From: Bacteroidales bacterium
GTDB lineage: Bacteria > Bacteroidota > Bacteroidia > Bacteroidales > UBA932
Direction: 5' to 3'
Length of the DNA stretch: 64,000 nt
Assembly: GCA_017960545.1 (NCBI GenBank)
Contig: JAGCYZ010000051.1
Coordinates: 19,784-83,783 of the forward strand
The notes under the pieces were generated by a model. It did no database searches. It was not told where the DNA came from and saw only the letters and a list, made by a program, of their open reading frames with translations. A program made the translations under genes and the position numbers. Position 1 is the stretch's first letter. Every line of letters begins with the position of its first letter. This document shows, piece after piece, positions 10,532 through 22,017 of this stretch.

Positions 10532-12034
10532 CTAGTCTTTAATGTGTACCTGAAGTCCGTTTACGTGGATTGCGCTGAACGGGCGTGAAGGGCAGAGGTT
10601 CTCGCAGGCGCCGCAACCTATGCACTTGGCCTCGTCCACTGAAGGGATCATTGGAGAACGCCTGTCCTGAGGGTCTTTGCGTACCATCATTATGGCGCCT
10701 ACAGGGCAGTGGCGGGCGCAGTTTCCGCAGGTTACGCCGTCACGCTCCACAACGCAGAGGCTGCGGTCAACGGTGGCGGTACCAATGTGGAACTGGGTCT
10801 TCTCCTGGGGGGTGATGGGCTTGATTGCGCCCGCAGGACATACCTGCGAGCACTTGGTGCACTCTGGACGGCAATAGCCGTTCTCATAGCTCATAACCGG
10901 CTGCATGAAGTGCTCGAGGTCCGTGGAAGGACGCAGCACGTGGTTAGGGCAGTTGGCCACGCATAGCTGGCAGGCGGTGCAATGGCGATAGAAGTCCTTG
11001 ATGCTGTCAGACCCGAAAGGGGTCAGGGGGGCGGTGCGCTCCGGAGCCTGCTTGTCTATGATCTCCGCCAGACCGCCGTCAAGTTTCTTCTCCTGGGCGC
11101 CCAGCGTAGCGGCCGTCACGGCGATAGCCGAAGACGCTATGAACGCGCGGCGGCCCTCGTTGATGTCATCCTGAACCTTGTTAATGTCATCCTGAGACTT
11201 GTTAATGTCATCCTGAGGCTTGTTAATGTCATCCTGAGGCTTGCCGAAGGATCTAGATTCTTCGCTTTGCTCAGAATGACACTTGGCGGCCTTTCCCCAG
11301 GCCTTGCCGTAGGTGAGGGCACCGAACTTGCAGTTCTCGACGCAGTTGAAGCAGTCAACGCAGCGGCTGTAGTCAATCTTCTTGTTGGCTATGTCAATGC
11401 AGGAAGCCTTGCACTGCTTCTCGCAGGCGCGGCAGCCTTTGCACTTGTCAGCATCAATGATGGGGCGGAACATTGCGAAGCGGGAGAAGAAGCTGAGCGT
11501 CGTTCCCACAGGGCACACGGTGTTGCAATATGTGCGGCCGCCAATCCAGGCAAGGATTGTGACAACAAGGAAGGTAACTATAGCAATGATGATGGTTCCG
11601 GTGGAAGCCGGGGCTACAAGGGTGCGGAGCATCCTTCCGTAGGCGCTGTACGGTGCCAGAAGGGCTACGAACACCTGGATGCCGGCTATGAGGGCCACTA
11701 CAAAGAGAACCCAGATCCCATAGCGGAGCCATTTGATTTCTTTCTTATAGGAGAAACGCATCTTTTTGCCTTTGCGCTTGCCGCTGAGCCAGGACACGAT
11801 GTCCTGATATACGCCCATAGGGCATACGATTGAGCAGTAACAACGGCCGAACAGGAGGGCTACCAGCACAAGGAGTACTATCACGCCCACATTTACGGCC
11901 AGCACTGCAGGAAGGAACTGGAACTTTGGCATCCATCCGAACCATTTGGTCAATTCTCCGCTGATTCCAAGGAACAGCAGGGAAATTGCGATGAAAAAGA
12001 TGGCAGCCAAAGCTATACGGGATTTCTTTAGCAT
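10532..12034 (-). CDS. Membrane 4Fe-4S polyferredoxin (NapH/NapF-like), carrying a repeat insertion
   Basis: GRCYCSIVCP, multiple CxxCxxCxxxC motifs, transmembrane helices; linker contains CHSEQSEESRSFGKPQDD... Confidence 0.88.
   Translation of the reverse strand: MLKKSRIALAAIFFIAISLLFLGISGELTKWFGWMPKFQFLPAVLAVNVGVIVLLVLVALLFGRCYCSIVCPMGVYQDIVSWLSGKRKGKKMRFSYKKEIKWLRYGIWVLFVVALIAGIQVFVALLAPYSAYGRMLRTLVAPASTGTIIIAIVTFLVVTILAWIGGRTYCNTVCPVGTTLSFFSRFAMFRPIIDADKCKGCRACEKQCKASCIDIANKKIDYSRCVDCFNCVENCKFGALTYGKAWGKAAKCHSEQSEESRSFGKPQDDINKPQDDINKSQDDINKVQDDINEGRRAFIASSAIAVTAATLGAQEKKLDGGLAEIIDKQAPERTAPLTPFGSDSIKDFYRHCTACQLCVANCPNHVLRPSTDLEHFMQPVMSYENGYCRPECTKCSQVCPAGAIKPITPQEKTQFHIGTATVDRSLCVVERDGVTCGNCARHCPVGAIMMVRKDPQDRRSPMIPSVDEAKCIGCGACENLCPSRPFSAIHVNGLQVHIKD
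11164..11281. repeat. Intragenic palindromic element copy 1: 55-bp core plus three 21-bp tandem units
   Basis: Core 11227-11281 TGTCATCCTGAGGCTTGCCGAAGGATCTAGATTCTTCGCTTTGCTCAGAATGACA; unit TGTCATCCTGAGGCTTGTTAA. Confidence 0.92.
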
Positions 12035-12141
12035 TTTATATACAGGATTAGTTGTTAGTTTCTTGAAATACGCATAGTTAGCAATATGCTCAAATATAAT
12101 TATTTTTTAATAATCAGCAAAAGAGAGTATCTTTGTTTTGT

Positions 12142-13095
12142 ATGGATTTAAAGGAACTGGGAGAATTCGGCCTCATAGAGCGCATCAAGGAGGCGCTGGG
12201 GGGCCCTATGCCGGACGGAGTCCTTGGCATAGGGGACGACTGCGCCGTACTGCCGCAGGCCGGCGGGATGGAGACCCTGGTGAGCACCGATATGCTCCTG
12301 GAAGGCACCCACTTCCTCAGGGGCGACATCCCCGCCCGCCTGCTGGGCTGGAAGAGCGCCGCCGTGAACTTCAGCGACATAGCCGCGATGGGCGGCCGGC
12401 CCGTGGGGTCGTTCCTGTCGCTGGGCCTGCCTGCAGGCCTGGACAGCGACTGGATGGACGCCTTCCTGGCCGGCTACAAGGAGTGCTCGCAGTACTGCGG
12501 CGCTCCCCTGCTGGGCGGTGACACCACCACCTCGCAGGACGGCATAGCCATAAACGTCACCGTGGTGGGACAGTGCCAAAGCGGCCGGTCACGCCAGCGC
12601 AGCTTTGCCGTTCCCGGAGACCTGATCTGCGTGACCGGCCCGCTTGGCGACTCCGCCGCAGGCCTGCAGGTCATCCTACAGGGCGCACGCGGCTCGGAGG
12701 CGGCGGAGGCGCTGGTGCAGCGGCACTACAGGCCGGTGCCTCGCATCTGCGAGGGCCAGGCCCTGGCCGCCACCCCCGGCGTCCACGCAATGATGGACAT
12801 ATCGGACGGCGTCGCTTCGGATTTGCGGCATATCCTAAAGGCCTCGGACGTTGGCGCCGTGGTACGGACGGAGAAGCTGCCTCTTTCCGCCGGGATGCGC
12901 CAGGTGTGCGCCCGGCAGGGCTGGGACGCCACCACCCTGGCCCTCACCGGCGGCGAGGACTACGAACTCCTCTTCACAATGGCCCCCGGCACGGAGCCTC
13001 CAGTGGAGTACTATGCAATAGGTACCGTAACAGAAGAAAAAAACCTGGTCTGGGAAGGATCCAGCCAGGATTTTATAGGATTCAGGCATTTCTAG
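12142..13095 (+). CDS. thiL: Thiamine-monophosphate kinase
   Basis: GEFGLI, GIGDDCA, NFSDIAAMG, GGDT, MDISDG, GGEDYELLF; ATG 6 nt after TATCTTTG. Confidence 0.93.
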   Translation: MDLKELGEFGLIERIKEALGGPMPDGVLGIGDDCAVLPQAGGMETLVSTDMLLEGTHFLRGDIPARLLGWKSAAVNFSDIAAMGGRPVGSFLSLGLPAGLDSDWMDAFLAGYKECSQYCGAPLLGGDTTTSQDGIAINVTVVGQCQSGRSRQRSFAVPGDLICVTGPLGDSAAGLQVILQGARGSEAAEALVQRHYRPVPRICEGQALAATPGVHAMMDISDGVASDLRHILKASDVGAVVRTEKLPLSAGMRQVCARQGWDATTLALTGGEDYELLFTMAPGTEPPVEYYAIGTVTEEKNLVWEGSSQDFIGFRHF

Positions 13096-13111
13096 CCTGA
13101 TTGTCTTTCCC

Positions 13112-14983
13112 TTAATTTGAGATTGAAACGCCTCCCAGTATGGTAATGCCGGGCTCGGGGTATCCAAGCATTGTCTGGTAGTCCTTGTTCAGGAGGTTCA
13201 GTCCGCGTACGAACAGCTGCAGCCAGTCATTTACCTGATAGCTTACACGGGCCTTCAGATCTACGTAATTGCTCTTGACGGCATTGTCTCCGGTGGACAG
13301 ATACAGGTCCCTGATGGCCATCGCGCCCACGCTGGCGCCAAAGCGTCCGGGGGTCCAGTCGAGGCCGGCGTATGCCTTGTGTACAGGGGCTCCGGTATAG
13401 ATGGTGTCCATATGCAGATAGCTGTAGTTGGCGTTGAATGCCAGCGAAGGAGCAATGCGCCAGTCTGCGGCAAACTCTACGCCCTTGTTGGCAAAAGCGC
13501 CCACGTTGCGGTTTTGCGGACGTCCGTTCTCACGGACCACCTCGATGATATTGGTACCCTTGGTATAGAACACGCTCAGTTCGGTATTCAGAGCCCCGTC
13601 AAAGAAGTGGTTGCCCAGTGTGAGGTCATAGCTCCAGGCCTCCTCCGGAAGGAGCTCGGCATTGGCGGAAGCATACATATAGAGCTCGCGCATATTTGGC
13701 ATCCTGAAGCCCTTTGAGGCCGATGCCTTGATGGTGGTGTGTGAAGCCGGCATAAAGGATACGCCAAACTGGGGAATCCACTCTGCGCCATACGCGCTGT
13801 GGTAGTCGAAACGGATTCCGGCATTGAACATAAACTTGCCAATGGTCTGCTGGTCAAATACATACACAGCTTCCTCGTTCAGCCTTTTATGGTCAGCATA
13901 GATCTCGGTAACAGGGTTGCGGTACGCATTTCCTCCGTAGTAGATCACGTCCGTTCCAACGGTCAGGGAGTTTCCGGTAAAGATATTCACAATCTGATAG
14001 GCGGAAAGTCCGGCGGTGAAATCTGTTCCGTGGAACATATATAACTGGGGAGCATTGGCGGCGGTGTGGCCGTCGTTAATGGTGTGGTCTCCGTAGTTGA
14101 AATAGAGATCGACGTTACCGGAGGTTTTCTCATATTTGTTCTCCAGGGAAAGGGTTCCCATTCCGCGGATGATGTCGGACCAGGCGTCAAACATAGGAGC
14201 GTCAACGGTGCCGGGATTCTCTGAATAGGCGTTCATCAGGCTTACCCTTGCTCCGGCCTTCCAGGCATCGCTCAGCTGATATCCAAGGTTGACCATTCCG
14301 TTTGTGGAACGGAAAGCGGAGTTGTCCCTGTGTCCGTTGGTGCTGTCGTGGCCAACTGTAACGGAAGAGGTGAAACGGCCTTTCTTGTAATTGTCCGAGA
14401 AATTGATCCTGTATGTTCCGTAAGAGCCAATCATCTCCTTGAAATCCAGATGGTTGCCATCTGTTGTAGGCTTCAGGGTTATGATGTTGATGGCACCTCC
14501 CATAGCGTTTGAGCCGTAAAGCACAGAAGCGGCGCCCCTGGACACCTCAACCCTCTGGGCGCCGGTTGCCATATACTCGTCCGCAACCGGATGGCCGTAG
14601 ATGGATTCGAACTGCGGATGGCCGTCAATGAGGATGATCACGCGGCCGGCCCCGGCGGCGAAACCGCGGAGGGAGATGGCTCCGGCAGCTCCTCCGGAGA
14701 CGCCGTATCCGGTTACTCCGCGGGAGGTGACGAACAGGCCGGGAACCTGCTCCATTACGGAGGTCATAACCGCATTTTCATCGCTGAGGGCGATGGCTGC
14801 GCGTCCTACGATGGATACAGGTGCCGGGAGAGCGTCCCTGAGCACGGAGAGACGGGTCCCGGTAACGACGGAAGCCGCAAGGGTGTCTGTCCTTTCCTGT
14901 GTATCATTGTCAGCGTAGAGGCTGGCGGTTGAAACTGTAGCGGCTAAGAGTATGGCAGCCGCAAGCCTTAATTTGTTTGTCAT
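13112..14983 (-). CDS. TonB-dependent receptor (short, non-SusC type)
   Basis: Signal peptide, TonB-box-like DTLAASVVTG, plug motif VEVSRGAASVLYGSNAMGGAINI, beta-barrel C-terminus. Confidence 0.88.
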   Translation of the reverse strand: MTNKLRLAAAILLAATVSTASLYADNDTQERTDTLAASVVTGTRLSVLRDALPAPVSIVGRAAIALSDENAVMTSVMEQVPGLFVTSRGVTGYGVSGGAAGAISLRGFAAGAGRVIILIDGHPQFESIYGHPVADEYMATGAQRVEVSRGAASVLYGSNAMGGAINIITLKPTTDGNHLDFKEMIGSYGTYRINFSDNYKKGRFTSSVTVGHDSTNGHRDNSAFRSTNGMVNLGYQLSDAWKAGARVSLMNAYSENPGTVDAPMFDAWSDIIRGMGTLSLENKYEKTSGNVDLYFNYGDHTINDGHTAANAPQLYMFHGTDFTAGLSAYQIVNIFTGNSLTVGTDVIYYGGNAYRNPVTEIYADHKRLNEEAVYVFDQQTIGKFMFNAGIRFDYHSAYGAEWIPQFGVSFMPASHTTIKASASKGFRMPNMRELYMYASANAELLPEEAWSYDLTLGNHFFDGALNTELSVFYTKGTNIIEVVRENGRPQNRNVGAFANKGVEFAADWRIAPSLAFNANYSYLHMDTIYTGAPVHKAYAGLDWTPGRFGASVGAMAIRDLYLSTGDNAVKSNYVDLKARVSYQVNDWLQLFVRGLNLLNKDYQTMLGYPEPGITILGGVSISN

Positions 14984-14986
14984 TCC

Positions 14987-15006
14987 TTGTATGATTAATC
15001 ATACAA
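14987..15006. promoter_or_regulatory. Perfect 20-bp palindromic operator at the TonB-receptor promoter
   Basis: TTGTATGATTAATCATACAA; overlaps the minus-strand TATATTTG box and ends 3 nt before the ATG. Confidence 0.75.
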
Positions 15007-15162
15007 ATATACCCCGATAATGGCGCATTAACGGTTATTTTGCACATAAAGGCAAAAATGTATAATTAATTATTTGCCATAATAGTATGTTTTTCAAATA
15101 ATTAGAGGTAAATTCGCAGTTAGCGGCACTTTGACGTCAAACATCTAATTGTATTATTTATA

Positions 15163-16785
15163 ATGGCCAGGAAATCACGCCCGGACAGCATCTACAGGGT
15201 TTCTGTCCACAGGAACGGAGGACATACGTACGCAGCCACGCACCCATATACCATTGACAAGGATGGCAACAGGAAGTACCGCGTGGAGCATTGGGGAACG
15301 GTTACGGATGAGTTGCGGTTCATCCCGGGGAAGCGGTTCTTCCAGGCGCCGGAAGAGGTCAGGCGGAGCCTGATTTTTCCGGAAGGCTGGGACCTCTCCG
15401 CAATTGAAGGCAGCGCCGCGCACGCTCTCCCCTTCCGTGAAGGGGATGCGGGCAAGGCGTTCGGCGCCGTTTGGCTGCTGGAGCGCATCGGGGAGAAATT
15501 CGCGCTGAGGGAGGACTTGGAAGAGGCCTTCGGGCCTTTGGCCGATGACCTTCTGACGCTGGCCTACTTCCCTTTCCTGACAGGGTTGTCATTCCAGCGT
15601 TTCGGCAGGTGGCAGGAAGCCACAAAGGTCCCTTCAGAAAGGCCTCTGGAGGAGATGGTACAGTCGCTGGCTGCTGTCAGCCGGGCATCGGTACATAAGT
15701 TTATGGATCTGCGCAAGGAAAGGTACGCCAAAGAGAGGCTTTGTGCGGTGGATTCCGTGTTAAGGCATTCTATGGGCTCTCTGGTATCTGACCGCCGATG
15801 GGGGCAGAAGACGGAACGCATCCATTTCCACACCACGGTGCAGGCGGTTGCGTATTCGCTTGACAGCCATATTCCAGTGGCATGCTCTTCGTTTCCGGAA
15901 GCGGTTTCGGACGCAAGGGGCCTTGAGATATTCTGGTCCGAACTGGAAAAGACCGGGCTGGGAGGCATAGCGGTTGTGACTGACCGCGGGTACGACTCCC
16001 TGCAGGGACTGGAACCGTATTATGGCAAGGGACCGCTGGTGATGTGCGTGGACGTGAAGCAGCCGGCGGTGATGGAGCGCATTGAGGCCTTCGGCCGGTT
16101 CCGCTCCCACCCCGCCGGAATGCGCTACCACGCGGAATCACGCCGCTGGTACCGCCAGTACAAACTTGACGATAAAGGGCTCAGGCTCAATCTTTTCTTC
16201 AATCCGGAACGCCGTGCGGCGGAGCTGGCGCAGATAGATGCCGGCATAGCATCCCAGTTTGACGCCCTGAAGGAAATAAAGGAATACGGCGTTACCATAA
16301 GCGACAGGAAGAAACTCCGCCAGGATTTCTTCTTCTTCAATACGGTGTATGACAGGGAAAGGCAGACGGTTGTGGATTTCTCCCCGGACAAGAACAGGAT
16401 TGTAATATCCAGGGCGGCATCCGGTTTCTATGCCAACATCACTTCCGGACTGGACATTGGACCGCTGGAGGCAGTTTCCATCTACAGCCTGAAATATGAC
16501 CAGGAGAAATTCCTGCGCCAGTTCCTGTCCCTGATGGAGTTCCCCGTGAAGATGCCGGTGACGCACAGTCTCAGTTTTGGGATGCTGGTACTGCAGTACA
16601 TAGGCCTGTTGCTGAACACCTGGCTCAGGTACTCGTCAGGGAAAGCGCTTCCTTACCGCAAATATATGGAGATTCTGGACGACTTCCACACCATTCCCTG
16701 CACCAATTCCGGCAACGGTACCTGCGCCCCCGCCTCTTTCTCAGAATCTCATAAAACAGTCCTTTCAGCTTTAGGTCTGGGATAG
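15163..16785 (+). mobile_element. IS4-superfamily (IS1634-like) DDE transposase-derived gene
   Basis: 540 aa; AVDS, VVTDRGY, YSLKYDQEK (degenerate YREK motif); no terminal inverted repeats found. Confidence 0.7.
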
Positions 16786-16794
16786 CACTCTACG

Positions 16795-17715
16795 TCATTT
16801 CCGACCATAAAGGCGGGCCACGATGGCACCGCTGATGTTGTGCCAGACGCTGAAGACGGCACCGGGGATGGTTGCCATCGGGTAGGCGGCAAAGTGGAGT
16901 GTGGCCAGCGAAGAGGCAAGGCCGCTGTTCTGCATACCAACCTCCACGCTGATGGCACGACGCTTTGCCGGCGTCAGCTTGAGGAGATATCCTATCAGAT
17001 AGCCGATGGCAAGGCCGCAGACATTGTGGAGGATCACTACCAGGACAATGACAAGGCCTCCTGAAAGAAGCTTGTGGGCGTTGGCGGCGATGACTATCAT
17101 CACTATAAGGCAGATGGCCACTGAGGAGAGTGCAGGCAGATAGCTGGTGGCGCGGTCAGTGGCCTTGGGCCACAGGCGCTTCACCAACAGTCCCAGCGCG
17201 ATTGGCAGTATCACCACCCACAGTATGCTCAGGAGCATTCCCCACACGTTGACATCTACGGTCTCACCCGCAAAGAGCCATACCAGGAGCGGGGTCAGCA
17301 CCGGGGCCAGGAGGGTGGACGTGGCCGTCATCCCCACGGACAAGGCCAGGTCTCCCTTGGCCAGGTAGGTGATGACGTTGGATGCCGTGCCGCCCGGGCA
17401 GCATCCTACAAGGATGACGCCCACGGTCAGGGCATCGTCAAGTGAGAATATACGCGAAAGCGCGAAGGCCAGGAGCGGCATTACGGTGAACTGCGCCAGG
17501 CAGCCGATGAGTACGTCCCGCGGGCGGCTGAACACCACGCGGAAATCCTCCGCCCTGAGCGTCAGGCCCATCCCGAACATAATCACCCCGAGCAACGGAT
17601 TGATGAGCGTGGGCTTAAGCCGCCCTATCGCCTCCGGCCACAGCAGCGCCGACACCGCTGACAGCAGCACCAGCACTCCCAGATAATCCGATATCCATTT
17701 GCAAAGCCGTTTCAT
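16795..17715 (-). CDS. Bile acid:sodium symporter (BASS) family transporter
   Basis: MFGMGLTL, GCCPGGTASNV, EVGMQNSGLA, FSVWHNISG. Confidence 0.92.
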   Translation of the reverse strand: MKRLCKWISDYLGVLVLLSAVSALLWPEAIGRLKPTLINPLLGVIMFGMGLTLRAEDFRVVFSRPRDVLIGCLAQFTVMPLLAFALSRIFSLDDALTVGVILVGCCPGGTASNVITYLAKGDLALSVGMTATSTLLAPVLTPLLVWLFAGETVDVNVWGMLLSILWVVILPIALGLLVKRLWPKATDRATSYLPALSSVAICLIVMIVIAANAHKLLSGGLVIVLVVILHNVCGLAIGYLIGYLLKLTPAKRRAISVEVGMQNSGLASSLATLHFAAYPMATIPGAVFSVWHNISGAIVARLYGRK

Positions 17716-17794
17716 ATATGACCCTCTGATCTGTACAGGCAAAGGTAACCATAATCTTTTGCAGGTAGGCCGGTATTTAGATATATTTGCACGG

Positions 17795-18301
17795 ATGGAT
17801 TACGTTCAGCATTACGCTTCCCCGCTAGGCGGGATCACCCTCTCCAGCGACGGAGAGGCACTTACCGGCTTATGGTTCGATGGCCAGAAGCACTTTGGCT
17901 CCACCCTTTCAGCCGGATTCCAGGAGGCAGACCTGCCGGTCTTTGACCTGGCCCGCCAATGGCTGGACATCTATTTCAGCGGCCGGGAACCGGACTTCAC
18001 TCCCCCTCTGCACCTGATTGGGTCTCCTTTCCGCAAGGCAGTCTGGGATGTCCTCAGGACCATTCCATACGGCTGCACGGTGACCTATGGGGAAATTGCC
18101 GCACGGTTAAGCACCGGCTCCGCTACGGACTCCGGGCCGTCCTGCCGGACCCTGGCCCGTGCCGTCGGCTCCGCCGTCGGTCACAACCCCGTCTCCCTGA
18201 TCATACCCTGCCACCGTGTAGTGGGCGCCGGCGGCCGCCTGACCGGCTACGCCTCCGGCCTCCCCAACAAATCCTACCTCCTCAACCTCGAATCCCGCTA
18301 G
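17795..18301 (+). CDS. ogt: Methylated-DNA-protein-cysteine methyltransferase
   Basis: IPYG, YGEIA, NPVSLIIPCHRVVG active site. Confidence 0.92.
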   Translation: MDYVQHYASPLGGITLSSDGEALTGLWFDGQKHFGSTLSAGFQEADLPVFDLARQWLDIYFSGREPDFTPPLHLIGSPFRKAVWDVLRTIPYGCTVTYGEIAARLSTGSATDSGPSCRTLARAVGSAVGHNPVSLIIPCHRVVGAGGRLTGYASGLPNKSYLLNLESR

Positions 18302-18342
18302 CGCCGTTCCTACTGCCTCCCGGCCAGGTTATACCCCACGGA

Positions 18343-18873
18343 CTATTTCTCGTTAGGGTGAAGTTTCTGGTAGAACCCGGCAGAATTTACCAGGCCGTTG
18401 AAATCGCTCCTCCTGATATGGACAGCGCGGATATAACCGTCCCTCTCCAGGCTGAATTCCAGCATTTTGGTGAACAGGAACTGCCTGGTGGTCACCTTTA
18501 CCGTTTCCCATTGGTCGTTGGGATACGCCAGGCTCAGGCATCCCTGAACCTCAATGGTCTGGCCTGCCGGCTGTTTAAGGTGTTCTTTCAACTGGTTGAG
18601 GGTAACCATAGATTCTGCGAGGGTTTCCCCGAGGGGGATGAACAGCTCAAAAACGGGATCCACCTGGAACTGGATGATATCGTCACCAATCCCAAGATGT
18701 CCTACTGAAAGGTAATACCGGCCGTTGTCTTCCATCTGGAGAACCTCCAGCTGGGTTTCGCCGTCATTAATTTCAAGTTCTACAATTTCAAGCCTCTGGC
18801 GCAGTGCGGAATTCTGGGCAAAAGAGAACAGCGTCACGCACGCTAGGCAAAGTGATATAAAATACTTTTTCAT
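18343..18873 (-). CDS. Hypothetical exported protein
   Basis: 176 aa with a Sec signal peptide ending SFA-Q. Confidence 0.7.
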   Translation of the reverse strand: MKKYFISLCLACVTLFSFAQNSALRQRLEIVELEINDGETQLEVLQMEDNGRYYLSVGHLGIGDDIIQFQVDPVFELFIPLGETLAESMVTLNQLKEHLKQPAGQTIEVQGCLSLAYPNDQWETVKVTTRQFLFTKMLEFSLERDGYIRAVHIRRSDFNGLVNSAGFYQKLHPNEK

Positions 18874-18986
18874 ATTCTGAATAATGTGTTAATTCCTAAT
18901 TACCTGGCAAATATACATATTTCCAAAGAGCATACCACGATGAAAACGAAAAATGCCCTGGGGGGATTAGCTCCAGGACATTTATG

Positions 18987-19057
18987 AGGTGCGTAGCGGA
19001 ATCGAACCACTGTGACAGGTTTTGCAGACCTGCGCCTAGCCACTCGGCCAACGCACC
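18987..19057 (-). tRNA. tRNA-Cys (GCA), CCA end not encoded
   Basis: GGTGCGTTGGCCGAGTGGCTAGGCGCAGGTCTGCAAAACCTGTCACAGTGGTTCGATTCCGCTACGCACCT folds as a cloverleaf; upstream TATATTTG box and downstream hairpin with U-tract. Confidence 0.95.
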
Positions 19058-19099
19058 GTTGGGACTGCAAATATAAGGGATTTTGATCTAATTGCAAAT

Positions 19100-20596
19100 T
19101 TATTTTAAGGGGGATTCAAAGAGGAGCGGCTCACCCGTCACAGGGTGACGGAATTCCAGGCGCGAGGCGTGGAGGGCGAGCGGAGCGTCCAGCGTGGAGG
19201 GATCGCCGCCGTAGAGCCGGTCACCGGCGATGGGGCGGCCCAGGCCCAAAGCGTGGGCAGCGTGGACGCGGAGCTGATGGGTCCGGCCCGTGAGCGGCTC
19301 GAACTCGATGTCGGTGCTGCCGTCACGCCTGTGACGGAGCACCCGATAGCGCGTAAGCGCCGGCTTGCCGGACTCCCAATCCGCCATCTGGCGGGGACGG
19401 TCGTAGTAATCCGGCGACAGCGGGATGCTGATCTCGCCCTGGTCTGCCGGAAGTTCGCGGCCGGGCTGGAGGCGCGCCTGGTAGCGCTTGCGCACTTCCC
19501 CATCCGCGAACTGACGGTGGAGTGCGGCCTGCCCGGCGGCGCTCCTGGCAAAGACCATCAGGCCTGATGTGTCCATATCCAGCCTATGGCAGGAGAAGAC
19601 CTCCGCCCCGGTCAGTTTCTCCAGGGCGCTGACCATGGAATGCGATACGTAGCGCCCCGGGGCTGCGAGCATCCCGGAGGGCTTTTCCGCCACAATGATA
19701 TGATCGTCCTGGAAGACTATGCGGGGCTCGCGCGAGCAGAGCTTGTTCAGAGGGTTTTCTTCGACATCCAACCCTTGGAGCATGAACTCCAGGAGCGGGC
19801 CGCACTTGCCGGTGCAGGAGGGGTAGAAGCGCCCCTGCGCGCGGACTTCTCGGCGCGGGGATGCTCCGTACCAGAACTCCCCCATCGCCAGCGGCTTCAA
19901 TCCGTGCGAGTAAGCATACTGGAGCAGCTTTGGCGCTGCGCAGTCCCCCGTTCCACCCGGCGGCACCAGGCCTCGGCGTGCGAAAACCTCCTTTATGGAA
20001 ATGGTCTCCCCCAGTGCGTTGGATACCATATAATGTTCGAATATCCAGTCCTGCAGCTCCACCGACAATGCGTGCCGCTCCCGCTCCAGCGCCTCGCAGA
20101 TATCCCCCTTAGGCTCATTGTCATCCTGAGGCTCATTGTCATCCTGAGGCTCATTGTCATCCTGAGGCTCATTGTCATCCTGAGGCTTGCCGAAGGATCT
20201 AGATTCTTCGCTTCGCTCAGAATGACAAGCGGCGGAGCCTGCTTTGAGGCAATTTTCAACAGACGCCTCTGTCCGGAGCGATTCAAGCCGTTCATTGATA
20301 TCAGTAATCCTGGCCTCGACGGCGCGGTAATACCCTCCCGGCTCCGTCAGGTCAAAGATAGGTGGAACGAAACCCTCCACCAGGGCGCTGCCTCCGGCCA
20401 CGCCGGAAAAGCCGTAGAGCACCTGGGTGCTCCCGGCGGCATCCTGCACCAGCAGGGCGCCCATCATCTTGCCTTCAGAGAACAGCCCCCGCAGGTAATC
20501 GGAGGCGTCAATGCGCTCAATGAGCGCAGCCGCCGCCTCCCGGATAAGCGGGTGCGGGACATAGCAGAACGGATATGTGAACTTCTCCGGAAGCAC
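19100..20596 (-). CDS. RluA-family pseudouridine synthase, carrying a repeat insertion
   Basis: KPSGML, HRLDMDTSG, TGRTHQLRVH, LHA; N-terminal GKMMG...GDCAAPKLLQYA extension. Confidence 0.92.
   Translation of the reverse strand: MLPEKFTYPFCYVPHPLIREAAAALIERIDASDYLRGLFSEGKMMGALLVQDAAGSTQVLYGFSGVAGGSALVEGFVPPIFDLTEPGGYYRAVEARITDINERLESLRTEASVENCLKAGSAACHSERSEESRSFGKPQDDNEPQDDNEPQDDNEPQDDNEPKGDICEALERERHALSVELQDWIFEHYMVSNALGETISIKEVFARRGLVPPGGTGDCAAPKLLQYAYSHGLKPLAMGEFWYGASPRREVRAQGRFYPSCTGKCGPLLEFMLQGLDVEENPLNKLCSREPRIVFQDDHIIVAEKPSGMLAAPGRYVSHSMVSALEKLTGAEVFSCHRLDMDTSGLMVFARSAAGQAALHRQFADGEVRKRYQARLQPGRELPADQGEISIPLSPDYYDRPRQMADWESGKPALTRYRVLRHRRDGSTDIEFEPLTGRTHQLRVHAAHALGLGRPIAGDRLYGGDPSTLDAPLALHASRLEFRHPVTGEPLLFESPLK
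20111..20280. repeat. Intragenic palindromic element copy 2: three 18-bp units, 55-bp core and half of a second module
   Basis: Core 20173-20227; unit TGTCATCCTGAGGCTCAT; 20230-20280 is similar to 21690-21740. Confidence 0.92.
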
Positions 20597-20598
20597 GG

Positions 20599-22017
20599 CT
20601 ATTCCACGTAAAGCAGAAGCCCCTTCAGATACTCCCCTTCCGGATGATAGATATTGACTGCATGGTCTGCCGGCTGGTTGAGCCGGTCAAGGATACGGAC
20701 GCGCCGGCCTGTCTGCGCCGCGGCTGAGAACACCGCCAGCGCAAAGTCCTCTTTGGTAACCACCTGCGAGCAGCTGAAGCAGAACACCAGCCCGCCGGGC
20801 GCCACCTTGGCGATAGCGGCCGCGTTGAGCCTCTGGTATGCCCTGAGGGCATTCCCCAGGGCTCCGCGGTGCTTGGCAAAAGCCGGCGGATCCACAATTA
20901 TCAGATCGTATTTATCCTGCGGCGAATTGCGCAGGAACTCTATGGCGTCCGTGCAGAAACTCTCGTTCATGGAGGCATCGAAGCCATTCAGCTCCACGTT
21001 CCTGTCCACCAGCGCCAGCGCACGGGCCGAACTGTCCACAGAATCCACGTGAAGGGCGCCGCCGGCCAGCGCGTAAATGGAGAATCCTCCGGTATAGCAG
21101 AACAGGTTCAGCACGCGCCTTCCGGCGGCCATCCTGCCCACCAGGGCCCTGTTCTCCCTCTGATCCAGGAAGAATCCTGTCTTCTGCCCTTCCGTCCAGT
21201 TGACGATGAACTTATGCCCGTTCTCCAGCACCACCTGGCTCTGGTCCTCGAAGCCCTGAGCCTTGTAAAGATAACCGTCCACGAGTTCCAGCCCCGCCTT
21301 GAACGGCGCCGTCCCGGAACTCTTGTCGTACACTGCCTTCAGGGCATCGCCATACACCGCTTTCAGCGCATCGCAAATCTGCTTCTTTGCCCGGAACATC
21401 CCCACCGAATGCGCCTGCATCACGCACACCCCGTCATAATAATCAATGATCAGCCCCGGCAGATTATCTCCCTCCCCGTGCACCAGCCTGTAGCAATTGG
21501 TCACCTCTTTGCCAGTCCTGTCATCCTGAGGCTCTTTGTCATCCTGAGGCTCTTTGTCATCCTGAGGCTCTTTGTCATCCTGAGGCTTGCCGAAGGATCT
21601 AGATTCTTCGCTCCGCTCAGAATGACAAGCGGCGTAACCAGCTTTGTCGGTACTGTCGGAGGACAGAGATGTCTGTTGGAAAGTGCTTTCGGCGGAGCCT
21701 GCTTTGTGGCACTTTCCAACAGACATCTCTGTCCGGAGCGCCAACCCAGCAGCAACTCGCACAGAAAGAGCACGACGAAGCGAAGTCTCCCAGAAATCTG
21801 CCGGAAGGGTGTCATACTCAAAACTGAGGACACGTACGGCGATAGAGCCTATCTGGTAGTGCCCGATGGCCAGGAAAGAGCCGTCGGCGGCATAGACGGC
21901 AACGACGTCGCCTTCCGCCGGAGAGCCCTGGATTTGGGCGATGGCTCCGGAGAAGACCCAGGGGTGGAAACGCAGCAGCGATTCTTCCCTATTTCTTTTT
22001 AGGATGATTCTTACCAT
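20599..22017 (-). CDS. rlmI: 23S rRNA m5C1962 methyltransferase, RlmI family, carrying a repeat insertion
   Basis: HPWVFSG, YRLVHGEGD, GQKTGFFLDQRENR, VLNLFCYTGGF, DPPAF. Confidence 0.9.
   Translation of the reverse strand: MVRIILKRNREESLLRFHPWVFSGAIAQIQGSPAEGDVVAVYAADGSFLAIGHYQIGSIAVRVLSFEYDTLPADFWETSLRRALSVRVAAGLALRTEMSVGKCHKAGSAESTFQQTSLSSDSTDKAGYAACHSERSEESRSFGKPQDDKEPQDDKEPQDDKEPQDDRTGKEVTNCYRLVHGEGDNLPGLIIDYYDGVCVMQAHSVGMFRAKKQICDALKAVYGDALKAVYDKSSGTAPFKAGLELVDGYLYKAQGFEDQSQVVLENGHKFIVNWTEGQKTGFFLDQRENRALVGRMAAGRRVLNLFCYTGGFSIYALAGGALHVDSVDSSARALALVDRNVELNGFDASMNESFCTDAIEFLRNSPQDKYDLIIVDPPAFAKHRGALGNALRAYQRLNAAAIAKVAPGGLVFCFSCSQVVTKEDFALAVFSAAAQTGRRVRILDRLNQPADHAVNIYHPEGEYLKGLLLYVE
21519..21740. 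repeat. Intragenic palindromic element copy 3 (222 bp, 74 codons): three 18-bp units, core and a 26-bp-arm hairpin
   Basis: Core 21573-21627; unit TGTCATCCTGAGGCTCTT; perfect inverted repeat 21661-21686 / 21709-21734. Confidence 0.92.

Follow-up and report, generated by a model that had tools for sequence, protein, structure and literature searches.

The same composite repeat lies in frame in three genes

We examined a 64,000-nt stretch of DNA (the window; contig JAGCYZ010000051.1, G000:C102:19784-83783, where G and C labels denote genome and contig) from the metagenome-assembled genome (MAG) of a rumen Bacteroidales bacterium (G000; 2.01 Mb in 112 contigs, 78% complete). Sequencing runs that contain this stretch are bovine or gut metagenomes from eight studies. 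A first-pass annotation had reported a 55-bp palindrome inserted in frame in three genes of the window, encoding a polyferredoxin, an RluA-like pseudouridine synthase and an RlmI-type rRNA methyltransferase, and its coordinates, orientation, frame and peptide were all found again (Table 1). A 38-nt core, GTCATCCTGAGGCTTGCCGAAGGATCTAGATTCTTCGC, has exactly three matches in the window (11228-11265, 20174-20211 and 21574-21611), with none expected from 100 shuffles. The three copies of the complete palindrome are 96-98% identical in pairwise comparison, lie in minus-strand open reading frames (ORFs) in one orientation and one frame, and encode the predicted peptide CHSE(Q/R)SEESRSFGKPQDD. Pfam domains are full length in all three host proteins; the insert peptide comprises 18 aa plus short repeats and has no Pfam match inside it.

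Each palindrome is a head-to-head dimer, with one unit per strand, tail to tail and tags outward, of a TGTC-tagged repetitive extragenic palindromic (REP) hairpin, hereafter the main family. In gene sense, each dimer leads into an array in which its right arm and a locus-specific spacer are repeated about four times in tandem, at periods of 21, 18 and 18 nt, and these arrays are predicted to encode PQDDINK, PQDDNE and PQDDKE repeats. The three window copies are near-identical copies of one composite, made of a partial loop of a second palindrome family (family 2, described below), the dimer and the arm array, which accounts for the single frame that they share.

Table 1. Host genes and repeat features in the window (positions count from the first base of the window)
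Feature	Position	Strand	Details
Host gene 1, membrane polyferredoxin, 500 aa, Fer4 clusters	10532..12034	-	insert in linker after residue ~250
Copy 1, head-to-head REP dimer, TGTC tags outward	11227..11281	-	spanned by two independent ENA assemblies
Copy 1 unit A	11256-11281	-	stem ATTCTGAGC, loop AAA
Copy 1 unit B	11227-11253	+	stem ATCCTGAGG, loop CTTG
Copy 1 array, unit B tag-side arm + TTAAC spacer	11155..11243	-	period 21, 4.2 copies, encodes (K/S/V)PQDDIN repeats
Host gene 2, RluA-family pseudouridine synthase (PseudoU_synth_2), 498 aa, N-terminal extension	19100..20596	-	insert at residues ~118-165
Copy 2 REP dimer	20173..20227	-	units 20202-20227 (-) and 20173-20199 (+)
Copy 2 arm array, CCTCAGGATGACA + ATGAG	20107..20187	-	period 18, 4.5 copies, encodes PQDDNE x4
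Partial family-2 loop (gene sense CCTCAAAGCAGGCTCCGCCGCT), abutting TGTC tag	20228..20250	-	within block common to copy 3
Host gene 3, RlmI-type rRNA methyltransferase, 472 aa (PUA_3 + Methyltrans_SAM)	20599..22017	-	~75-aa composite insert, residues 97-170
Copy 3 REP dimer	21573..21627	-	units 21602-21627 (-) and 21573-21599 (+)
Copy 3 arm array, spacer AAGAG	21519..21587	-	period 18, 3.8 copies, encodes PQDDKE x3-4
Second partial family-2 loop, degenerate (gene sense GACAAAGCTGGTTACGCCGCT), abutting tag	21628..21650	-	
Complete family-2 palindrome inside RlmI insert	21657..21736	-	perfect 26-bp stem, conserved apical loop CCACAAAGCAGGCTCCGCCGAAAGC

The inserts recur in independent assemblies. 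Of the two ENA assemblies that span copy 1, one is identical to the window and the other is shorter by exactly one 21-nt arm unit, a difference that could be an assembly collapse. At copies 2 and 3, both junctions are crossed by Logan contigs from three to four studies, which lead from unique parts of the gene into the array on one side and out of the palindrome into the gene on the other. None joins across an empty site; Logan k-mer contigs break inside repeats, and these are therefore evidence for the junctions and not for an end-to-end span or for array copy number. The spans and junctions speak against an assembly or binning artefact, which a fragmented, incomplete MAG and short-read graphs broken by repeats might otherwise suggest. 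An intron- or intein-like intervening sequence, removed by splicing, agrees no better with the data: the Rfam search (19900-21900) gave no intron or ribozyme match above noise, the Pfam-negative peptide contains no intein motifs, and the length of the insert varies by array units. Artefact and splicing are thus largely refuted, and we consider them extremely improbable.

The repeat unit is a covarying hairpin found across phyla

Genome-wide scans of G000 (BLAST and Hamming scans) define the unit as TGTC + AT[C/T]CTGAG[C/G] + a loop of 3-5 nt + [C/G]CGAAG[G/A]AT + C. The tag is unpaired, the stem has nine positions, consisting of seven Watson-Crick pairs and a conserved tandem G.A, and the short tail reads C-T-(A/C/G) and not CCA. 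Among the 50 units the tag is TGTC in 47, CGTC in two and AGTC in one. The commonest loops are GAA, found most often, and GCA, and GCCA, GTCA and CTTG also occur. With a GAA loop, the apex of the unit becomes GCGAAGC, which is an unusually stable DNA mini-hairpin. Folded as a single strand, the dimer of copy 2 forms one long hairpin (-24.9 kcal/mol, z -3.2).

The stem varies in a compensatory manner, as in the change from GAGC/GCG to GAGG/CCG. In 198 units from many phyla and from viral contigs, the variable stem pair is C-G in 86 and T-A in 112, with no mismatch and no T/G wobble. Such strict covariation (198/198) is clean evidence for constraint on the hairpin itself, and the zero count of wobble pairs points to DNA rather than RNA as the probable substrate.

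The first-pass annotation had taken the element to be particular to this Bacteroidales lineage, and in this it was mistaken. The exact 26-mer, with Y/R left free at the variable pair, is present in at least 120 contigs of a species-representative genome collection; the matches listed include Acidobacteriota, Nitrospirota, Chloroflexota, Bacillota, Cyanobacteria, Patescibacteria (candidate phyla radiation, CPR), Verrucomicrobiota, Gemmatimonadota, Planctomycetota, Proteobacteria and Bacteroidota. It also occurs in 50 IMG/VR viral contigs, so that the identical 26-nt hairpin is common to genomes of at least ten phyla and to viral contigs. The Rfam search of 19900-21900 returned no family for the repeat, only chance miRNA-like matches on the second palindrome, and neither the unit nor its peptides turned up in a full-text literature search. 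The data support the original description of a small, non-autonomous palindromic repeat of the kind represented by REPs and Rickettsia palindromic elements (RPEs).

Most units are intergenic, and genic units use four frames

G000 contains at least 50 main-family units on more than 30 contigs, and a looser search for any GTCAT-tagged hairpin gave 75 matches against 10 in a reversed-genome control. On a gene map made with our own simple codon-usage caller (1641 genes, 91.6% coding), 22 units are genic and 28 intergenic. Compared with the predicted coding share of the genome, a genic share of 22/50 is a strong depletion from coding DNA (binomial 1e-17), as expected because most other genic insertions would have been purged. 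Intergenic units lie mostly 2-70 nt past gene 3' ends. Head-to-head dimers are found on C102 (three), C65, C89 and C79. On eight contigs (C50, C54, C57, C62, C67, C79, C87 and C112) units lie within a few hundred bases of a contig end; the repeats therefore break the assembly, and the true copy number exceeds 50.

These counts change the picture gained from the window, where no intergenic copy had been seen and where the repeat had been described as a protein-coding element with one frame. The window indeed holds no intergenic copy, but genome-wide most units are intergenic, and the genic ones occur in both orientations and in all four open frames (CHSERSEES, VILSEAKNL, ILRFAQ(D/N)D and SFASLRMT). 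A mostly intergenic distribution with random frame, which the first-pass annotation had itself named as contrary to its reading, is thus found in part. Four of the six frames of the unit, and three of those of the dimer, are free of stop codons, a property that would let genic copies keep the host ORF open.

Beyond the window, Pfam-confirmed hosts with internal in-frame units are a POR/TPP enzyme (C9), a CapD-like Polysacc_synt_2 protein (C10), a P-type ATPase (C56), an iron superoxide dismutase (FeSOD; C67, two units and an arm), a Mur ligase (C79, two sites) and an RsmE-like methyltransferase (C65, a dimer). Long ORFs that overlap units and have no Pfam match were left out of this count. At least nine Pfam-confirmed enzymes in one 2-Mb genome therefore carry internal inserts, among them FeSOD, the P-type ATPase and three RNA-modifying enzymes. 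A class II aminoacyl-tRNA synthetase and RimP have C-terminal tails that end in units, and units upstream of RidA, SufBD and SpoU genes probably lie 5' of the true starts.

Two of these genes show further peculiarities. The rimP gene (G000:C61:11873-12172) encodes only 99 aa, corresponding to the N-terminal domain; it closes, directly ahead of nusA, with a REP unit and a 19-nt arm repeat, and the repeat may have truncated the gene or given it a new terminus. The Mur-ligase gene (G000:C79:12800-14164) contains two separate single units in the VILSEAKDL frame and a family-2 loop, and its second unit lies inside the Mur_ligase_C match without an obvious increase in length.

Arm arrays and a second palindrome family accompany the units

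Extra arms are not confined to the window. In G000, 18 of the 50 units have one to three additional copies of the tag, 5' stem, loop start and a spacer of 2-8 nt on the tag side, and only two units have repeats on the non-tag side. Each locus has its own constant spacer, which usually ends in the same 2-4 nt as the loop (CAAG, TGC or AG), a microhomology that fits tandem duplication. The outer units of the copy 1 array are progressively diverged, and one and the same base distinguishes each unit of the copy 2 array from those of copy 3. In confident genes all arrays (8/8) have a period that is a multiple of three, against 4/11 intergenic cases (Fisher's exact test, 0.013), as do three more genic arrays of the congeneric genomes G001 and G007; this is what purifying selection on the host frame would produce. 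The arrays behave as variable-number tandem repeats, of which only those with a multiple-of-three period survive inside genes. We propose that they would arise as tandem duplications of the loop end, tag-side arm, tag and 2-8 nt, with hairpin-promoted replication slippage as the likely cause.

A total of four arms recurs in the three window copies, on C9, at C65:478 and in the polyferredoxin and SOD genes of G001. Outside G000, the arm-array architecture also accompanies identical units of other phyla (14 of 139) and, in G001, different CGTC families. A clear array on the non-tag side is seen only at an intergenic dimer with its tags inward (G000:C88:28000-28150), in which the 3' arm is repeated six-fold (AAGTGAAGAATCTAAC) with a period of 16, not a multiple of three.

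Family 2 has at least 16 copies in G000, in the window and on contigs C21, C31, C55, C65, C78, C79, C84, C105, C111 and C112. Its perfect stems of 15-26 bp are copy-specific, with changes on both arms, and its apical loop of ~22-25 nt is conserved, reading CCACAAAGCAGGCT, then CC or TGAC, then GCCGAAAGC, between AAAGTGC and GCACTTT. Copies often adjoin REP units, and one complete copy lies within the RlmI reading frame. This member folds with -54.8 kcal/mol (z -8.5), and its left arm and loop are common to the G001 orthologue in diverged form. No Rfam family matched family 2, which could be either a structured RNA or a further element acting as single-stranded DNA.

The window copies might all stem from segmental copying of a ~120-bp composite, or from its ectopic gene conversion, and not from independent insertion, in a family that is perhaps immobile now. 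Copies 2 and 3 are only 1.4 kb apart, in adjacent co-oriented genes, and agree over 116-127 bp (94-96% identity), a block that takes in the arm array and non-REP flank; for these two, derivation of one from the other by local copying or ectopic conversion would be the most likely origin. The CTTG-loop subtype is, in addition, nearly restricted to contig C102, and no target duplication was identified. Copy 1, however, is 9 kb away in an unrelated gene and has only the dimer and array architecture in common with the others, while ~47 other units are scattered across more than 30 contigs. The family is patchy, being present in 25 of the 60 congeneric genomes that we surveyed, which requires gain or spread. 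The one-base difference in every unit between the arrays of copies 2 and 3 moreover implies at least an array homogenisation after copying. As an account of all three window copies, local copying is possible but in our judgement doubtful.

The insertion sites compared lie in linkers whose occupants differ between species

Comparison with orthologues places the inserts at sites that are empty elsewhere. Most congeneric RlmI orthologues have a linker of 5-8 aa (…AAGLADAEATNCYRLVHGEGD) in place of the 75 residues of G000. AlphaFold2, with an alignment of 12 orthologues, gives RlmI residues 97-170 a predicted local distance difference test score (pLDDT) below 35 and no secondary structure, and positions them between the confidently predicted PUA domain and the next domain. 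Compared with Porphyromonas gingivalis SOD (1UES), the G000 enzyme has ~27 extra residues between its two domains, at a site where four congeners have no insert. In the RluA gene of G001, the closest relative of G000, the palindrome is absent, and a different CGTC REP with an arm duplicate is found instead, at a position where G000 has no insert. Across orthologues the linker of the polyferredoxin is hypervariable, with other REP families there in other species. The same peptide was not seen at the same site in distant orthologues among those examined. The proposal of in-frame insertion at sites empty in orthologues is thus supported, and so, for RlmI with its predicted disordered linker, is retention in a tolerant loop. 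Copies that land in, or are copied into, such permissive surface or interdomain linkers would leave the host enzyme working and so survive purifying selection.

In all three linkers compared across species, different REP families occupy one position. The polyferredoxin linker holds the TGTC dimer in G000, a ATTGCCGG unit and a ATGCCCGA unit in both G001 and G007, and main-family variants in G006 and G012. The SOD linker holds the main family in G000, a ATCCCCGA unit with four arms in G001 and a ATTCCCGG unit in G007. In RlmI, the G000 insert and a ATTCCCGG unit in G001 both follow a common family-2 loop. G001 has 86-94% protein identity to G000, yet its polyferredoxin arrangement is common to the more distant G007, which suggests that the occupant was probably replaced in the G000 lineage. 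The other CGTC families of G001 and G007 are likewise in frame, with tag-side arm arrays of 18 or 24 nt, and the total of four arms is reached twice in G001.

Such re-use of sites fits two readings: high insertion pressure may act on very few permissive sites, or units may home to existing hairpins. In the latter, REPs would integrate preferentially beside or into REP or hairpin sites already present, a few linkers would be long-lived landing pads with replaced occupants, and the arrays would be by-products of nicking and recopying at the TGTC tag by a Y1-HUH enzyme (a putative class of mobiliser considered below). The presence of different CGTC/TGTC families at the same linkers of sister species is what homing with turnover would give, as are the recurrence of same-polarity arrays, often of four arms, in different REP families and other phyla, and the repeated abutment of REP units on family-2 loops. 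Only three or four sites were examined, however, and strong selection for few permissive sites together with high insertion pressure gives the same pattern; identical spacers within an array also fit tandem duplication better than repeated insertion. We regard targeted homing as unlikely. A broader conjecture, speculative and also unlikely, is that a tag-directed nick-and-recopy process, probably of a Y1-HUH enzyme, reiterates the tag-side arm (typically to four) and homes to hairpins, that linkers in essential genes serve as landing pads overwritten by successively sweeping families, and that the 26-nt hairpin is the single-stranded DNA substrate of a widely shared enzyme.

A domesticated function would offer another reason for retention, with hairpins in the mRNA acting as ribosome pause sites between domains or as transcript stabilisers, or with acidic PQDD repeats as flexible linkers. 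The position of the inserts at domain boundaries, the strong hairpins and the frame kept in the arrays are all in keeping with this. Yet the inserts are species-specific and absent from most orthologues, they are read in different frames and hence as different peptides in different hosts, and array copy number varies; purifying selection on the host would by itself keep the frame. Domestication therefore appears improbable.

Candidate enzymes for spread in trans

The first-pass annotation had found no candidate mobiliser near the copies. This holds for the window, but four genes for proteins resembling REP-associated tyrosine transposases (RAYTs), of the Y1-HUH type and ~290 aa long, lie elsewhere in the genome (C60, C12, C80 and C79). 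The proteins carry NHVH or NHIH motifs and a tyrosine motif (YVQMNS or YDY[YM]NP). Against PF01797 they score near threshold (17-26 against 23), and a PDB sequence search with a Y1 protein gave only marginal matches to the IS200 family (E 0.14), in the region of the HUH motif. Two of the Y1-HUH genes examined have unrelated CGTC hairpins nearby. In the window itself, a DDE_Tnp_1 ORF between copy 1 and copies 2 and 3 (15163-16785, plus strand, 540 aa) has a weak match (24 bits); we weighed it as a mobiliser and set it aside, since it has no other match to the 38-nt core nearby and looks unrelated to the repeat. The expectation that any mobiliser must act in trans is supported.

Among the 60 congeners, the number of Y1-HUH genes correlates with the number of REP matches (Spearman 0.64), with a mean of 4.8 genes in REP-positive and 1.7 in REP-negative genomes. 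Of 14 REP-positive genomes, 12 have a close homologue of the C60 gene, against 13 of the 46 others (Fisher's exact test, 3e-4). We infer from these associations that the units may spread as single-stranded DNA hairpins through trans-acting, RAYT-like Y1-HUH enzymes encoded elsewhere in the genome.

Several observations weigh against spread by these enzymes, or against the account of the repeat given so far. None of the four Y1-HUH genes, nor any of five congeneric homologues, has a main-family unit in its 1.5-kb flanks, so that a RAYT or HUH gene flanked by the repeat, which the first-pass annotation had proposed to look for, was not found. The four proteins reach 31-47 bits against the RAYT model NF047646, whose cut-off is 80, and they resemble a C-terminally extended Y1 subclass reported not to be REP-associated (PMC6006769). 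CGTC REPs are described in the sections of Di Nocera et al. (2013; PMC3733652) on which we draw as having no dedicated transposase. The correlation between REPs and Y1 genes ignores kinship and general mobile-element load; since related genomes are not independent and mobile-element load confounds, it is a lead and not a proof. Direct signs of recent mobility were not seen, and four metagenome runs yielded no empty-site allele of the three inserts. We recognised no target-site duplication at these inserts, whose boundaries are blurred by arm arrays and family-2 sequence. Slippage explains neither the recurrent four-arm total nor the bias towards the tag side (18 against 2), and the split into genic and intergenic units rests on a simple codon-usage caller. 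With these points taken into account, we assign a probability of about 0.8 to the reading that the element is a TGTC-tagged REP hairpin of the CGTC/TGTC superfamily, tolerated in genes and putatively spread in trans. The earlier interpretation was right in kind, a selfish REP-type hairpin in protein linkers, and wrong in scope as regards lineage, genic share and frame.

Relation to known repeats

The closest counterparts are the CGTC/TGTC-tagged REPs, which the relevant sections of PMC3733652 describe as having an unpaired terminal tag (CGTC, or else TGTC or CCTC), stems of 8-9 bp starting with AT (A-T, T-A), loops of 4-5 nt with noted exceptions in loop length and a CCA tail, and as forming mostly head-to-head dimers. 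They are reported there from five phyla, Bacteroidetes and Chlorobi among them, with intergenic copies just downstream of genes. The same sections state that intragenic in-frame GTAG/CGTC REPs are common, occur mostly as dimers or groups and encode 20-82 aa, and that Rickettsia RPE-4 and RPE-6 are CGTC REPs. The G000 repeat agrees with them in its unpaired tag, a nine-position stem beginning A-T, T-A, dispersed copies near 3' ends, head-to-head dimers, in-frame genic copies and the lack of a flanking transposase. It differs in its commonest loop (3 nt), in the tail CT(A/C/G) in place of CCA and in the conserved tandem G.A pair, and the tag-side half-unit arrays seen here are not described in those sections. 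Set against published families by description, the element would best be filed as a further member of the CGTC/TGTC-tagged REPs.

RPEs resemble the G000 repeat, as far as their descriptions go, in being in-frame palindromes in unrelated functional genes, at surface positions, with empty sites in orthologues and no linked transposase. The host here is a free-living, gut-associated Bacteroidales and not an obligate intracellular alphaproteobacterium, and the copies here are mostly intergenic. RPE-1 is also longer, at about 100-150 bp. With REPs and RAYTs organised as REPINs (REP doublets forming hairpins; Bertels and Rainey, 2011; Ton-Hoang et al., 2012; PMC8049555, PMC6006769) the element has in common the inverted REP doublet that forms one long hairpin, the presence of Y1-HUH relatives in the genome and a REP load that correlates with Y1 gene number. 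The tag is however TGTC and not GTAG, and the Y1 genes are multi-copy, ~290 aa and below the RAYT cut-off; as they are not flanked by the repeat, there is no REPtron. We therefore rejected the REPIN/RAYT label on tag, REPtron arrangement and RAYT score. In-frame bacterial miniature inverted-repeat transposable elements (PMC10969869) are likewise small, non-autonomous, palindromic and occasionally translated within host proteins; the unit of 26 nt (55 nt as a dimer) is below their usual size, and no insertion-sequence terminal inverted repeats were identified.

In-frame palindromic inserts have been known since the Rickettsia work on RPEs (Ogata et al., 2000; cited in PMC3733652, PMC10969869 and PMC1779305), so the central phenomenon of in-frame REPs and RPEs is already published and the novelty of the present case is moderate. 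It indicates that colonisation of housekeeping enzymes by in-frame REPs is not peculiar to Rickettsia or a few cultured species, and that it is extensive in an abundant, uncultured genus of rumen Bacteroidales. The extent of coding colonisation, the polar arm arrays, the replacement of families, the Y1 correlation and the cross-phylum covariation merit specialist attention; arm arrays, family replacement at linkers and the Y1-HUH correlation offer leads on how CGTC-type REPs, which have no known transposase, may spread. For annotation, the repeat accounts for CHSERSEES, VILSEAKNL and ILRFAQDD peptides and for odd length variation in many predicted proteins.

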